In this document: positions 3,327 through 32,444 of the stretch, piece by piece | Position numbering within the stretch: position 1 is the first letter of the stretch | How the letters are laid out: each line of letters starts with the position of its first letter | NCBI GenBank assembly: GCA_021421665.1 | Contig: GCA_021421665.1_4698.1 | Strand: one strand, 5' to 3' | From: a phage | Length of the DNA stretch: 32,908 bases | Program-made: the position numbers and the translations under genes | Notes under the pieces: model-generated | The model's database searches: none | What the model was told of the DNA's origin: nothing | The model's input: the letters and a program-made list of their open reading frames with translations, nothing else

Positions 3327-3385
3327 GTTATACTCAAGGTCACTTACTAGTGGCCTTTATGAATAACTTAAATGAGGCAAATACT

Positions 3386-3646
3386 ATGATTAAATACACT
3401 GCTTATCAATTAACTAAAGACCGTAAGATAGGTGTTGAGGTTAAAGCTTGGAATGAAGGACACATCACTGTAGTTATAGAGTGTCTCCAAGACAATGGTG
3501 TGATGCTAAGAAGCTACCGTTGCTTCACCAAATTACGCTGCAAGGATTTAACTGAAGAATTATTCTTACGTTGTATTGTTGAATCTATTAAACTTATTAG
3601 ACCCTACGCCAAGCAAGTTGTAGGTAATGTCACAGTAGTACATTGA
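3386..3646 (+). CDS. hypothetical protein (86 aa)
   Basis: ORF-track ORF 3350..3646; ATG at 3386 is preceded by GAGG at a suitable distance; in-frame alternatives at 3350 (GTG) and 3359 (ATG). Confidence 0.5.
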   Translation: MIKYTAYQLTKDRKIGVEVKAWNEGHITVVIECLQDNGVMLRSYRCFTKLRCKDLTEELFLRCIVESIKLIRPYAKQVVGNVTVVH

Positions 3647-3668
3647 TTTACTGGACACTATAGAAGGA
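3646..3668 (+). promoter_or_regulatory. SP6-type phage RNAP promoter ATTTACTGGACACTATAGAAGGA
   Basis: Matches SP6 promoter consensus ATTTAGGTGACACTATAGAAGAG at 19 of 23 positions; predicted +1 G at 3663; intergenic. Confidence 0.8.
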
Positions 3669-3732
3669 ATGCCTAGGTAATCTAGGTTTATAAGGTAGTA
3701 TAGGTAGTTAAGTAAATATAGGAGGTATAAAT

Positions 3733-4059
3733 ATGTCTATGGTGACTACTCTGGTATTCGTGGCTCAATACTTTCGTGGCTTATCTAATAAGTTTAAGCA
3801 GAAGGCTATCTTTGCAATTCAAGAGCGTATCAATAAAATTGAAGAAGAACAAGTAGATGTAGAAGAACATCGTAGTTCTCAAATGATTGACTGCCACAAC
3901 CGCTACTATGCATCTCGTGATGACCTTAATGCGCGTCAAGTCAAAGAGGTTGAAGAGATGCTGGCCGCCACCAGCAAGAGCGTGACAAACTGGAAGCTGA
4001 CTTCGAAGAGAACAAGGCACCCATCGCCCTTGTACATCAAGCCGCATCTGACAGCTTGA
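3733..4059 (+). CDS. hypothetical coiled-coil-like protein; C-terminal part may continue in the -1 frame to 4109
   Basis: AGGAGG SD before ATG 3733. A second frame is open 3954..4109, lacks a start of its own, encodes a coiled-coil-like peptide and ends at the SD of the next gene. Confidence 0.5.
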   Translation: MSMVTTLVFVAQYFRGLSNKFKQKAIFAIQERINKIEEEQVDVEEHRSSQMIDCHNRYYASRDDLNARQVKEVEEMLAATSKSVTNWKLTSKRTRHPSPLYIKPHLTA

Positions 4060-4118
4060 AGAAAGAGATTGTTATGCTGGAGATTGAACTGGACAACCTA
4101 ACTAAGTAAGGAGTTATG

Positions 4119-4415
4119 ATGGAAGAAGTGATTCAAGCTAAACATGTAGGTATCATCTTTCGTGATCTAGAGCAGCGTAAAGTTGCAGGTCATACCCGTT
4201 TGGCTAAAGAAGATGATACAGCAATCGCTACTGTTGAACAAGCAGATGCCTATCGTGGGCCAGAGTTTACTCAAGGTGAAACTTGTCACCAATTGAGCCT
4301 GTCACTTTGTGACACTATGGCTAGTGTGAATGTGCAAGAAGTTGAAGATGGAGACTGTGTTAGCTACGTCTACCCTCTGGACACTGTTGCACGTATTAAA
4401 GTAATTCATAAATAA
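4119..4415 (+). CDS. hypothetical protein (98 aa)
   Basis: AAGGAG at 4108-4113 is 5 nt before ATG 4119 (ATG 4116 is also in frame); stop abuts the next promoter. Confidence 0.55.
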   Translation: MEEVIQAKHVGIIFRDLEQRKVAGHTRLAKEDDTAIATVEQADAYRGPEFTQGETCHQLSLSLCDTMASVNVQEVEDGDCVSYVYPLDTVARIKVIHK

Positions 4416-4436
4416 TTACTGGACACTATAGAACAA
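4414..4436 (+). promoter_or_regulatory. SP6-type phage RNAP promoter AATTACTGGACACTATAGAACAA
   Basis: Core GGACACTATAGAA conserved; predicted +1 G at 4431; intergenic. Confidence 0.75.
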
Positions 4437-5691: not shown

Positions 5692-5714
5692 ATTTACTGG
5701 ACACTATAGAAGAG
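5692..5714 (+). promoter_or_regulatory. SP6-type phage RNAP promoter ATTTACTGGACACTATAGAAGAG
   Basis: 21 of 23 match to the canonical SP6 promoter; predicted +1 G at 5709. Confidence 0.8.
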
Positions 5715-14034: not shown

Positions 14035-14057
14035 ATTTACTGGACACTATAGAAGGG
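14035..14057 (+). promoter_or_regulatory. SP6-type phage RNAP promoter ATTTACTGGACACTATAGAAGGG upstream of the capsid gene
   Basis: Predicted +1 G at 14052; the transcript begins with hairpin gggaga-AATG-tctccc at 14055-14070. Confidence 0.8.
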
Positions 14058-26610: not shown

Positions 26611-26896
26611 ACATGCAGCTACAGAGGATGAGGTTGGCATTCTGCATGGTGCTATTACCAAAATCTTCAATAAGAAAGCACAGGCTATACTGGACACTAT
26701 AGAAGAAGACCCAGATGCAGCACTGCATTTAGTGTCTGGTAAAGACATTGGTGCTATGTGCAAATGGGTTCTTGATAATGGTATTACCGCTACACCTGCT
26801 GCACAGCAGGAAGAGTCCAAGTTGTCTAAGCGCCTCAAGGCTATCCGAGAGGCATCTAGTGGTAAGATTATTCAGTTTACAAAAGAGGACAATTAA
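26594..26896 (+). CDS. terminase small subunit (gp18-like)
   Basis: 100 aa, GTG start after GGAGGGAG, immediately upstream of the large terminase; positional assignment. Confidence 0.65.
   Translation: MSVHNKHAATEDEVGILHGAITKIFNKKAQAILDTIEEDPDAALHLVSGKDIGAMCKWVLDNGITATPAAQQEESKLSKRLKAIREASSGKIIQFTKEDN
26685..26707 (+). promoter_or_regulatory. intragenic SP6-promoter-like sequence CTATACTGGACACTATAGAAGAA
   Basis: Core CTGGACACTATAGAAGA is intact but the two upstream positions differ from all intergenic copies; lies inside the small terminase coding sequence. Confidence 0.35.
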
Positions 26897-28794
26897 TGGC
26901 TAAGGCAAGAGAATCACAAGCGGAGGCTCTTGCCAGATGGGAGATGCTACAGGAGTTACAGCAGACCTTTCCTTACACAGCGGAAGGTTTGCTTCTCTTT
27001 GCAGATACAGTTATTCATAATCTGATTGCAGGCAACCCTCATCTGATTCGTATGCAGGCCGATATCTTAAAGTTCCTATTCTATGGGCACAAGTATCGAC
27101 TCATCGAAGCGCCTCGTGGTATCGCTAAGACAACACTCTCAGCAATCTATACAGTCTTCCGTATCATCCATGAACCACATAAGCGTATCATGGTTGTATC
27201 CCAAAATGCCAAGCGAGCAGAGGAAATCGCCGGTTGGGTAGTTAAAATATTCCGTGGCCTAGACTTCCTTGAGTTTATGCTACCTGACATATACGCTGGA
27301 GATCGTGCATCCGTCAAAGCCTTTGAGATTCACTACACGTTACGCGGCAGTGATAAGTCGCCTTCTGTGTCCTGTTATTCTATTGAAGCAGGTATGCAGG
27401 GTGCTCGTGCGGATATTATCCTAGCAGATGACGTAGAGTCTATGCAGAATGCTCGTACAGCAGCAGGTCGAGCCTTACTTGAGGAATTAACCAAGGAGTT
27501 TGAATCTATCAACCAGTTTGGTGATATCATTTATCTTGGTACACCTCAGAACGTAAACTCTATCTACAACAACCTACCTGCTCGCGGCTACTCTGTTCGC
27601 ATCTGGACTGCACGTTACCCTTCGGTGGAGCAAGAGCAATGCTATAGTGACTTCCTTGCACCTATGATTGTGCAGGATATGAAGGACAACCCAGCACTTC
27701 GCTCAGGTTATGGCTTGGATGGCAACAGTGGTGCACCTTGTGCCCCTGAAATGTACGATGATGACGTCCTGATTGAGAAGGAAATATCGCAAGGTGCTGC
27801 TAAGTTCCAGCTCCAATTCATGCTTAACACTCGCATGATGGATGCAGACCGCTATCCTCTACGTCTGAATAACCTCATCTTCACCTCATTTGGCACAGAG
27901 GAAGTCCCTGTGATGCCTACATGGAGTAATGACTCTATTAACATCATTGGAGATGCACCTAAGTATGGCAATAAACCTACAGACTTCATGTATCGACCTG
28001 TTGCCAGACCATATGAATGGGGTGCTGTTACCCGTAAGATTATGTATATCGACCCGGCGGGTGGCGGTAAGAATGGGGACGAAACGGGTGTAGCGATTGT
28101 CTTCCTGCATGGCACATTCATTTACGTGTATCAGTGCTTCGGAGTACCGGGCGGATACCGTGAATCGTCTCTGAATCGCATTGTGCAGGCCGCAAAGCAG
28201 GCGGGTGTTAAAGAGGTATTCATTGAGAAAAACTTTGGTCATGGCGCGTTTGAGGCGGTAATTAAGCCATACTTTGAACGTGAGTGGCCCGTTACACTGG
28301 AAGAGGATTACGCTACCGGACAGAAAGAGTTGCGTATCATTGAGACGCTAGAGCCGCTCATGGCGGCGCACAGGCTCATCTTCAACGCTGAGATGGTCAA
28401 GTCTGACCTTGAGTCAGTACAGCACTATCCGCTTGAACTACGCATGTCCTATAGCCTTTTCAATCAAATGTCGAACATCACGATTGAGAAGAACAGCCTC
28501 CGGCACGATGACCGCTTAGACGCTCTGTACGGCGCTATACGGCAATTAACTTCTCAGATAGACTATGACGAGGTTACACGGATTAATCGCCTCAGAGCGC
28601 AGGAGATGCGCGATTATATCCAAGCTATGAATACACCTCACCTCCGCAGGGCAATGCTCTATGGAGATTATGGGACTGAGCGAAGAGTGACCAACACTTC
28701 TGTAGCGATGCAGCAGCGGGTTTATGGTCAGAACTACCGGAATAAGTCTTCCAATAGAAATACCATTTCTGCAAGGATTTCAAGGACTTATTAA
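26896..28794 (+). CDS. terminase large subunit (gp19-like)
   Basis: 632 aa; Walker A-like EAPRGIAKTT; acidic catalytic stretch ADIILADDVE; position after small terminase. Confidence 0.92.
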   Translation: MAKARESQAEALARWEMLQELQQTFPYTAEGLLLFADTVIHNLIAGNPHLIRMQADILKFLFYGHKYRLIEAPRGIAKTTLSAIYTVFRIIHEPHKRIMVVSQNAKRAEEIAGWVVKIFRGLDFLEFMLPDIYAGDRASVKAFEIHYTLRGSDKSPSVSCYSIEAGMQGARADIILADDVESMQNARTAAGRALLEELTKEFESINQFGDIIYLGTPQNVNSIYNNLPARGYSVRIWTARYPSVEQEQCYSDFLAPMIVQDMKDNPALRSGYGLDGNSGAPCAPEMYDDDVLIEKEISQGAAKFQLQFMLNTRMMDADRYPLRLNNLIFTSFGTEEVPVMPTWSNDSINIIGDAPKYGNKPTDFMYRPVARPYEWGAVTRKIMYIDPAGGGKNGDETGVAIVFLHGTFIYVYQCFGVPGGYRESSLNRIVQAAKQAGVKEVFIEKNFGHGAFEAVIKPYFEREWPVTLEEDYATGQKELRIIETLEPLMAAHRLIFNAEMVKSDLESVQHYPLELRMSYSLFNQMSNITIEKNSLRHDDRLDALYGAIRQLTSQIDYDEVTRINRLRAQEMRDYIQAMNTPHLRRAMLYGDYGTERRVTNTSVAMQQRVYGQNYRNKSSNRNTISARISRTY

Positions 28795-28815
28795 TTACTG
28801 GACACTATAGAAGGA
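28793..28815 (+). promoter_or_regulatory. SP6-type phage RNAP promoter AATTACTGGACACTATAGAAGGA
   Basis: Starts at the terminase stop; predicted +1 G at 28810; followed by a 130-nt AT-rich leader with TAGGT repeats and hairpin gggtgtac-TACT-gtacaccc (28887-28906). Confidence 0.8.
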
Positions 28816-30477: not shown

Positions 30478-30548
30478 ATAGAGTGGCGATCATTTGGTCG
30501 CCTTTACTCAAGGTGCTCATGGTGGGCGCTTTAAGTAAAGGAGGAAAC

Positions 30549-32444
30549 ATGGCTCTAACTAGACTAACGTCAGCCTTGGTTAGTATCAAGTCTTCCGTGG
30601 TAGGTACTGTCAAGAGAACCATTGCTAACAAGTTTGACCTTGATTTATCTCTGGAGGATTTTGGTGCAGACCCAACTGGCAATACAGACTCTACCGCGGC
30701 TGTTATAGCAGCCCTTAGTAGTCGTAAACGTATAGTCCAAAAAGGTGGAGGTATCTACCGACTGGATGGCGCGGTTGTTGTCCCAACAGGTGATGTCCAT
30801 TTTGAAGGGGCAGGTATAGGCAAGACTGTCTTCAGATTCAACCACTTCACACAAGGTTTCAGACTTGGTGATGAGGCTGACTCAGGTAACAGGTATATTC
30901 ATGTCTTCCGCAAAGCCACTATTGAACGGCCAAACTATGCATCATACACTGGACAGATTAGCCCTAAATCTTTGTATATCTCAAACTCTAGAAACGGATT
31001 GGTAGAAGATATTGATCTGTCAGGTTCTATCGGTTACGGGATACAGTTTGATTATTCAGACACCTACGTAATGGTTCGCAGGTGTTATGTGCATGATCAT
31101 TTCGGTGGTAGCTCCGTGGCGGTTGGTACTGATGGTATCCACTTCTATCGAACAAAAGACTTCTGGGCTATTGAAAATACAGTGGCTCGTGTTGGTGACG
31201 ACGCAATCAGTTGTGGTACTTTTAACTTTGCCTACCCTGTGAGTAATGGTCATATCTTATTTAACAAGATATACAATACACAGGGCACCATCAAGATTTA
31301 CACCAAAGTATCTGGTGTTACAGTCAAGGGTAACTATATTGATGGGTCAGTACAGGGCGGTGTGTATATCACGAACGATGCAAACGCACCAGAAAACGCG
31401 GCTATTAATGACATTACAATAGAAGACAACAAGTTCTACAACATCTTCCCAAACGTGGAAACAAATATAGAGGCTGGACCTTTACGTATCCGCGGTTGGA
31501 AGGGTGGTGCTTGCTCTTTTAACAATATCATTTTCAAGGACAACTACTGCTCAAACACTTACGCTGGAATTAACTTTCTTGTTAACTCTGCCAACCAACG
31601 ACTCAGAAACCTCTATGTAGAGGGGAACATCTTCTTTGTTCAAGCCTTGGGTACAACAAACTCAAGATCTGCAATAATGCTACAGTGCTGTGATGAGAAC
31701 TTAGTTGTTCGCAATAATACCTTCAAAGATACATCTGGTGGTCTCTTGCAGATTGACGCTGTTGGTTCTGGTTTCACTGCAGAACCTTCATCCAATGGTA
31801 GGTTTACCATCACAGGCAACCAAGTGGAAGGATGGAACAAATCAGTAACGGTTGGTCGTAGTGCGCTACGCGGTATCTTCTTACGGCAAAACTTATATGA
31901 CTGCATTGTTGAGATAACCAATAACAAACTTCAATATCAGTACACTAGTGGCTCTGCCGCAAAAGGTCGTGCAGTTGAGACGGCTGGTGTTCACCCTGAT
32001 AGCAGGTTTGAGAACAACGTACTAGATGGTAATGTGTTGTTTAACTCAAACAATGGCGGATACTTTGGTTCAAACAAAACCATAGCTGACCTAACAAGTG
32101 CACCGGGGCCGCGCTCTGGCACACACCAGCGTGGTAGCTCTTTGAGGACAGAAGTACCTACAGCTACAAGGTACAACGAGTATCTGATAGTTAAATCTGG
32201 AACTCTTGATACTATTTCCGCAACAGTAACAATAGACTCTGGTTCATACTCAGGGACTATAACATCTGGCTCATTACTACCCGGTGTATATGTGACAGTC
32301 GCAGGGTTGTCTGATGTGTTACGTGTATTGCGTGTGGCTGGTAGCTCTGTGTTATTTGACTCAAAGGCATCAGCTACTGTAACAGATGCTGCAACAGTAA
32401 ACTCCAACCCAACATGGTTGGCCCGTTCATTAGTACCAGCATAG
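30549..32444 (+). CDS. tailspike protein 1 (631 aa), probable beta-helix capsule depolymerase
   Basis: AAAGGAGG SD before ATG 30549 (ORF-track start 30483 has none); N-terminal DFGADPTGNTD motif typical of pectate-lyase-fold tailspikes; repetitive Asn/Gly/Thr-rich beta-strand-like sequence. Confidence 0.8.
   Translation: MALTRLTSALVSIKSSVVGTVKRTIANKFDLDLSLEDFGADPTGNTDSTAAVIAALSSRKRIVQKGGGIYRLDGAVVVPTGDVHFEGAGIGKTVFRFNHFTQGFRLGDEADSGNRYIHVFRKATIERPNYASYTGQISPKSLYISNSRNGLVEDIDLSGSIGYGIQFDYSDTYVMVRRCYVHDHFGGSSVAVGTDGIHFYRTKDFWAIENTVARVGDDAISCGTFNFAYPVSNGHILFNKIYNTQGTIKIYTKVSGVTVKGNYIDGSVQGGVYITNDANAPENAAINDITIEDNKFYNIFPNVETNIEAGPLRIRGWKGGACSFNNIIFKDNYCSNTYAGINFLVNSANQRLRNLYVEGNIFFVQALGTTNSRSAIMLQCCDENLVVRNNTFKDTSGGLLQIDAVGSGFTAEPSSNGRFTITGNQVEGWNKSVTVGRSALRGIFLRQNLYDCIVEITNNKLQYQYTSGSAAKGRAVETAGVHPDSRFENNVLDGNVLFNSNNGGYFGSNKTIADLTSAPGPRSGTHQRGSSLRTEVPTATRYNEYLIVKSGTLDTISATVTIDSGSYSGTITSGSLLPGVYVTVAGLSDVLRVLRVAGSSVLFDSKASATVTDAATVNSNPTWLARSLVPA

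Follow-up and report, generated by a model that had tools for sequence, protein, structure and literature searches.

Gene 15 of an SP6/K1E-like phage contig probably carries a very recent single-base deletion

The locus and its reading frames

The window, that is, the whole stretch of 32,908 nucleotides analysed here, represents a contig from a lytic podophage of the SP6/K1E type (Autographiviridae, Molineuxvirinae, Vectrevirus/Zindervirus) and is 88-93% identical to NIC06P3, mutPK1A2, K1E and other phages across most of its length. This strictly lytic Autographiviridae genome is present both in a TPA 'Escherichia coli' isolate assembly, where it forms a contig, and, as a complete 44,291-nt contig, in the Logan run ERR5432339; a lytic phage contig in a bacterial isolate assembly implies either phage contamination or a carrier-state culture.

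The gene at 3733-4109 (Table 1) occupies a conserved position: the DNA polymerase gene and a few small ORFs precede it, gene 15.5 and the 268-aa gene 16 follow, and the same order is found in PSK8, SP6, K1E, K1-5, mutPK1A2 and an ENA contig described below as the sister. Six copies of an SP6/K1E-type promoter with the core ACTGGACACTATAGAAG lie on the plus strand of the window, at 3646-3668, 4414-4436, 5692-5714, 14035-14057, 26685-26707 and 28793-28815. The copies at 3646 and 4414 bracket genes 15 and 15.5, which make up a unit driven by the first of these two promoters.

An ORF of 86-98 aa at 3350-3646, between gene 14 and the promoter, is common to PSK8 and the sister contig, but K1E, K1-5 and SP6 lack it; as this mosaic insertion is missing from them, these three phages cover only 73% of the query. 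The tailspike ORF (30483-32444, about 650 aa) resembles the K1 endosialidase tailspike of mutPK1A2 only in its first ~60 residues (43% identity), and the phage probably targets a different capsule or O-antigen than mutPK1A2 does. Between the small and large terminase genes (26890-26896), the HNH homing endonuclease and small ORF of mutPK1A2 have no counterpart in the window.

Table 1. Features at and around gene 15 in the window
Feature	Coordinates	Strand	Description
Phage RNA-polymerase promoter upstream of gene 15	3646..3668	+	ATTTACTGGACACTATAGAAGGA, read as the SP6-type promoter consensus; one of six copies, 0 expected by chance
Native 5' part of the gene 15 ortholog	3733..3965	+	Codons 1-77 and the first two bases of Ala78; collinear with intact SP6, K1E, K1-5, PSK8 and other orthologs
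Site of the 1-nt deletion	3965..3966	+	A absent between the two bases; GGC-CGCC in the window, GGCACGCC or GGCACGTC in intact genes
Out-of-frame tail, now translated	3966..4059	+	Residues 79-108, ATSKSVTNWKLTSKRTRHPSPLYIKPHLTA, then TGA
Ancestral 3' part of gene 15	3966..4109	+	Codons 79-125 and TAA; lies in the -1 frame today, outside the translated part; corresponds to residues 79-125 in the alignment with all orthologs
T replaced by C compared with the sister allele	4020..4020	+	Exchanges Ser97 for Pro in the old reading frame and is silent (His) in the new one
Downstream gene 15.5	4116..4415	+	98-99 aa; Shine-Dalgarno GGAG at 4110-4113 abuts the ancestral stop of gene 15

Gene 15 is preceded by the Shine-Dalgarno sequence AGGAGG at 3720-3725 on the plus strand, as read directly, with the ATG at 3733 following 7 nt downstream, and the 0 frame runs from this ATG to a TGA at 4057-4059 to give 108 aa. 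The product is on record as HBM9312983.1 (locus tag L0114_004008), a TPA 'Escherichia coli' protein. In the -1 frame, an open stretch without a start codon extends from 3954, just after a TGA at 3951-3953, to a TAA at 4107-4109 and reads RDAGRHQQERDKLEADFEENKAPIALVHQAASDSLKKEIVMLEIELDNLTK; this last codon overlaps TAAGGAG, the Shine-Dalgarno of the next gene (ATG 4116/4119). An earlier note, made from the letters of the window alone, had described precisely this arrangement, a 0-frame ORF at 3733-4059 behind AGGAGG together with a startless -1 frame at 3954-4109 ending on the Shine-Dalgarno of the next gene, and all its coordinates hold. The chance that an alternative frame stays open for 52 codons is (61/64)^52, or about 0.08, which is not rare; the openness of the -1 frame is meaningful because of its homology to intact orthologs, not because of its length.

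Intact orthologs and the missing base

SP6 gene 15 (SP6p17, NP_853577.1), K1E gp15 (YP_424991.1) and K1-5 gp15 (YP_654115.1) are the orthologs of this gene, which belongs to PHROG 7450. When one base is restored, the encoded protein matches the PHROG 7450 profile over positions 1-125 of 125 (E = 9.7e-66), while for the unrepaired ORF the match is limited to positions 1-88 (E = 3.8e-40). The repaired protein is 85-88% identical to gene 15 of SP6, K1E and K1-5 and has the same start, Shine-Dalgarno and position. However, gene 15 of these phages encodes 125 aa, and the copy in the window, without one A, encodes 78 native and 30 frameshifted residues, so that in place of a single uninterrupted ORF of about 125 codons there is a frame broken at 3965/3966. 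Judged by sequence comparison, the gene is a disrupted member of the SP6 gene 15/K1E gp15 family (PHROG 7450).

The disruption amounts to one nucleotide. The gene is 377 nt long in the window versus 378 nt (125 aa) in PSK8, SP6, K1E and K1-5, and a MAFFT alignment shows one gap, at GGC-CGCC versus GGCACGTC (GGC-CGC versus GGCACGT). The same deletion is seen as blastn gaps against mutPK1A2 and NIC06P3 and in the site context of 20 orthologs. The 0-frame product matches the orthologs up to Ala78; from Arg79 on, it is the -1-frame product that agrees with them, as far as the last residue. The earlier note had seen the coiled-coil character of the N-terminal part carried on in the -1-frame peptide; from position 3966 on this peptide aligns with residues 79-125 of the intact orthologs, but its first four residues (RDAG) are overlap and do not belong to the ancestral protein.

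Intact copies are the rule among relatives. Each of the 109 phage records with the gene has 80% or more of it at a single location, and among the 60 of these records that were listed the gene is uninterrupted in 59. In IMG/VR, 13 of 13 loci match residues 1-125. The orthologs extracted from fetched loci are uninterrupted in 20 of 20 cases and exactly 378 nt long in 19, the exception being that of mutPK1A2, which is 387 nt long with a slightly different end; the site context is GCA-CGT in 18 of the 20. In addition, the protein collection holds 75 clusters of the family, nearly all of 123-127 aa, with listed member counts summing to about 400 sequences. In the same collection of 15 billion proteins, the 108-aa product forms a singleton cluster and its tail is shared with no other protein. 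A degenerate pattern search of IMG/VR for the deletion junction gave a sole match, in an unrelated high-GC phage gene, and this was rejected as a chance match.

A comparison of the two C-termini with those of orthologs had been proposed in the earlier note as one way to tell which frame is conserved. The C-terminus now lying in the -1 frame is indeed kept in the orthologs, but as the normal continuation of a single 125-codon ORF, and the two-frame layout is private to the window. No conservation of the 0-frame C-terminus was seen: the equivalent frame has stops in mutPK1A2, the sole relative translated in three frames, and the 108-aa product is a singleton.

The closest intact allele is the sister in the contig NODE_496 of the ENA assembly ERZ19243454 (44,733 nt), which is 98.5% identical to the window over 4 kb and about 99% identical in gene 15. 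Its gene 15 is intact, encodes 125 aa and differs from that of the window at only three positions: a synonymous A/G difference at 3744, an A between 3965 and 3966 (GGCACGCC, where the window has GGCCGCC), and T instead of C at 4020. Because the sister has GCA-CGC (Ala78-Arg79), the lost base is the A of these two codons; loss of a C from a CCC run (ancestor GCC-CGC) was also considered and is rejected on the same ground. Since the sister allele is intact, the deletion is younger than the ~1% divergence between the two phages. As for the third difference, position 97 is S, T, A or I and never P in 38 diverse homologs, of which 37 are free of proline over their whole length.

Origin of the frame switch

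The most satisfactory explanation, and a likely one, is a genuine and very recent single-base deletion in gene 15, which leaves what is probably a loss-of-function allele of an accessory gene. With almost the same confidence we infer that the deletion is in the phage DNA rather than in the reads, and that it is fixed or in the majority. An independent assembly, the Logan contig ERR5432339_92 (44,291 nt), shows no difference from the window over 6,327 nt, deletion included, and since it repeats the deletion, the latter is not an artefact of one assembler. Moreover, gene 15 alone has stop codons in the alignment among the ~40 genes (~33 kb) compared with mutPK1A2, and all other indels of a length not divisible by three, relative to mutPK1A2 or NIC06P3, either have a compensating change only a few bases away or are intergenic. 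As no other uncompensated frameshift occurs in these ~33 kb, the data are not indel-prone.

The main competitor, which we consider improbable, is a sequencing or assembly artefact, in which the phage DNA would carry GGCACGCC and an intact 125-codon gene and the A would have been lost in the reads or the consensus. The singleton status of the allele among 15 billion proteins speaks for it, as does the GC-rich local context GGCCGCC. The two assemblies are identical, which counts against an artefact, but both are probably from the same reads, and a systematic read artefact would then repeat in both. The old-frame C-terminal part has a pN/pS of about 0.1 against relatives and looks fully constrained, as expected if nothing had happened; under a genuine deletion the same value shows only that the deletion is recent. 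Against an artefact stand the lack of any further uncompensated frameshift and the position of the site outside a homopolymer, which is not the commonest context of slippage deletions and yet also argues against a sequencing error. The change of Ser97 to Pro, although a single substitution, fits, if faintly, a relaxed constraint on the old frame downstream of a real deletion. TPA isolate assemblies of this type would derive from Illumina reads, where indels in the consensus are very rare, and this likewise speaks against an artefact.

Somewhat less probable still is a mixed population, in which intact and deleted alleles would be present together in the sample and the assemblers would report the majority one. 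Phage stocks and carrier cultures are often heterogeneous, which would be in keeping with such a mixture; both assemblies cross the site as one unbroken contig, which speaks against it only weakly because assemblers pop such bubbles.

The earlier note had offered three readings of the locus, namely a programmed -1 shift, an indel and a pseudogene. The last two are borne out by orthologs with one uninterrupted ORF, and the first is not. A programmed -1 frameshift or transcriptional slippage at GCC-GCC would allow part of the ribosomes or transcripts to give the full 125-aa protein, and it may count in favour of this reading that the open part of the -1 frame reaches from precisely the junction to the ancestral stop and codes for the conserved C-terminus; any fresh deletion, however, leaves the same. 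Well-known cases of such recoding are T7 gene 10A/10B, the lambda G/GT tail chaperone and E. coli dnaX, which rely on a slippery heptamer and stimulatory elements and whose two-frame layout is conserved among relatives. They are like the window in that a second frame continues the protein past the 0-frame stop, but heptamer, stimulatory elements and conserved layout are all absent from the window. The X_XXY_YYZ heptamer is found nowhere in the gene, in agreement with the earlier note, and the longest homopolymer in the frame overlap is 3 nt, so that transcriptional slippage has no substrate. As read from the sequence, the conserved protein would be produced only if tRNA-Ala moved from GCC to GGC, and this pairing is not slippery. 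Folding of the 100 nt downstream is no better than in shuffled sequence (z = -0.78), 41 of 200 shuffles folding at least as well, and the value in an intact relative is similar (z = -0.51). Upstream, the only internal Shine-Dalgarno is a weak GAGG at 3946, 18 nt before the site. In addition, no relative examined has the two-frame layout, and the ~99%-identical sister is a plain single ORF. Programmed frameshifting is thus effectively excluded.

The protein, its family and the loss of gene 15

The orthologs in PHROG 7450 carry the RefSeq/PHROG product name 'polysaccharide chain length determinant protein', which has been widely propagated. Wzz-type chain length determinants have two transmembrane helices flanking a periplasmic domain, and this layout would not fit the gene 15 protein, which has 125 aa and, in an AlphaFold2 model, one continuous helix (residues 3-124). 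The Wzz profile TIGR03007, a 13-21-bit match to which is the basis of the name, has a cut-off of 278.85 bits, and the scores are 13.4 for the repaired protein of the window and 20.7 for that of K1E; the match is a coiled-coil stretch covering 105 of 498 positions. In searches of the Pfam and NCBIfam profiles, no Pfam family was found above threshold and there was only sub-threshold coiled-coil noise. Judging from these comparisons, the name is without support and is not to be trusted. Nothing in BFVD matched the single-helix model by Foldseek, a lone helix carrying no fold information, and literature searches on SP6/K1E gene 15, Vectrevirus frameshifts, the chain-length-determinant name and the run accession returned nothing about the gene.

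The AlphaFold2 model was made on an intact homolog with an alignment of 38 homologs, and its uninterrupted helix of ~122 residues has a mean pLDDT of 95.6; the intact protein is probably a long coiled-coil-forming protein. With one A lost from GCA-CGC in gene 15 of this Vectrevirus phage, ribosomes would start at 3733, read 78 native residues and then 30 unrelated ones, and terminate at 4059. The mutant would lack the 47 conserved C-terminal residues (3966-4106, -1 frame), among them the most conserved stretch (…IALVHQAASDSLKKEIVMLEIELDNLTK). The 30-residue new tail contains three prolines, and the mutant would keep ~60% of the predicted helix. On this model the accessory gene is a dispensable one, and the deletion has most likely abolished or crippled its function. 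A second consequence may concern gene 15.5. The distance from the stop of gene 15 to the start of gene 15.5 is 0-12 nt in relatives, whereas ribosomes in the window would now stop ~57 nt upstream of that start, and because of this distance translational coupling to gene 15.5 is probably weakened.

The window is not the only place where gene 15 is broken. Four other public sequences have independent frame-breaking indels in this gene: a deletion at nt 10 in the Logan run SRR28469831, an insertion near nt 72 in the Logan run SRR6278411, a deletion at nt 22 in the ENA assembly ERZ25891908, which is K1E-like and otherwise agrees with K1E wherever the two align, and, in Klebsiella phage pKP-M186-2.1 (OP413828.1), a change of frame within the first third of the gene, which is annotated there as two separate CDSs that lie in different frames. 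In the first three, as in the window, single-base indels break gene 15 in otherwise normal SP6-like genomes. The deletion in the window is at nt 234, whereas the breaks in the four others are all near the 5' end. A comparable case within the genus is gp56 of Vectrevirus mutPK1A2, whose record notes that a 'deletion at position 41265 results in premature termination'; there, too, a single deletion truncates a small accessory gene, but the gene is a different one and the deletion was documented by the depositors.

These alleles suggest that gene 15 tolerates null alleles and is hence dispensable. It is conceivable, but unlikely, that gene 15 is a recurrent target of inactivation, with five independent single-base indels in a gene of 378 nt; the alternative is plain tolerance of null alleles. 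Two genes were taken as controls. Gene 15.5 has only three clusters, all full length, which are too few for comparing the rate of broken alleles, and for a 121-aa gene the best 120 of 212 clusters are all 118-128 aa long, truncated ones being expected to rank below those listed.

For annotation, HBM9312983.1 ('hypothetical protein', 108 aa) is better regarded as a frameshifted allele or pseudogene of the 125-aa SP6 gene 15 family and not as a new protein or a recoding site. The frame switch in itself implies no new biology and would be an ordinary frameshift mutation. Should gene 15 nevertheless prove to be a recurrent target of inactivation, there might be selection for its loss on certain hosts, for example as an escape from a defence that senses the long-helix protein, or the gene might be costly in carrier-state cultures.
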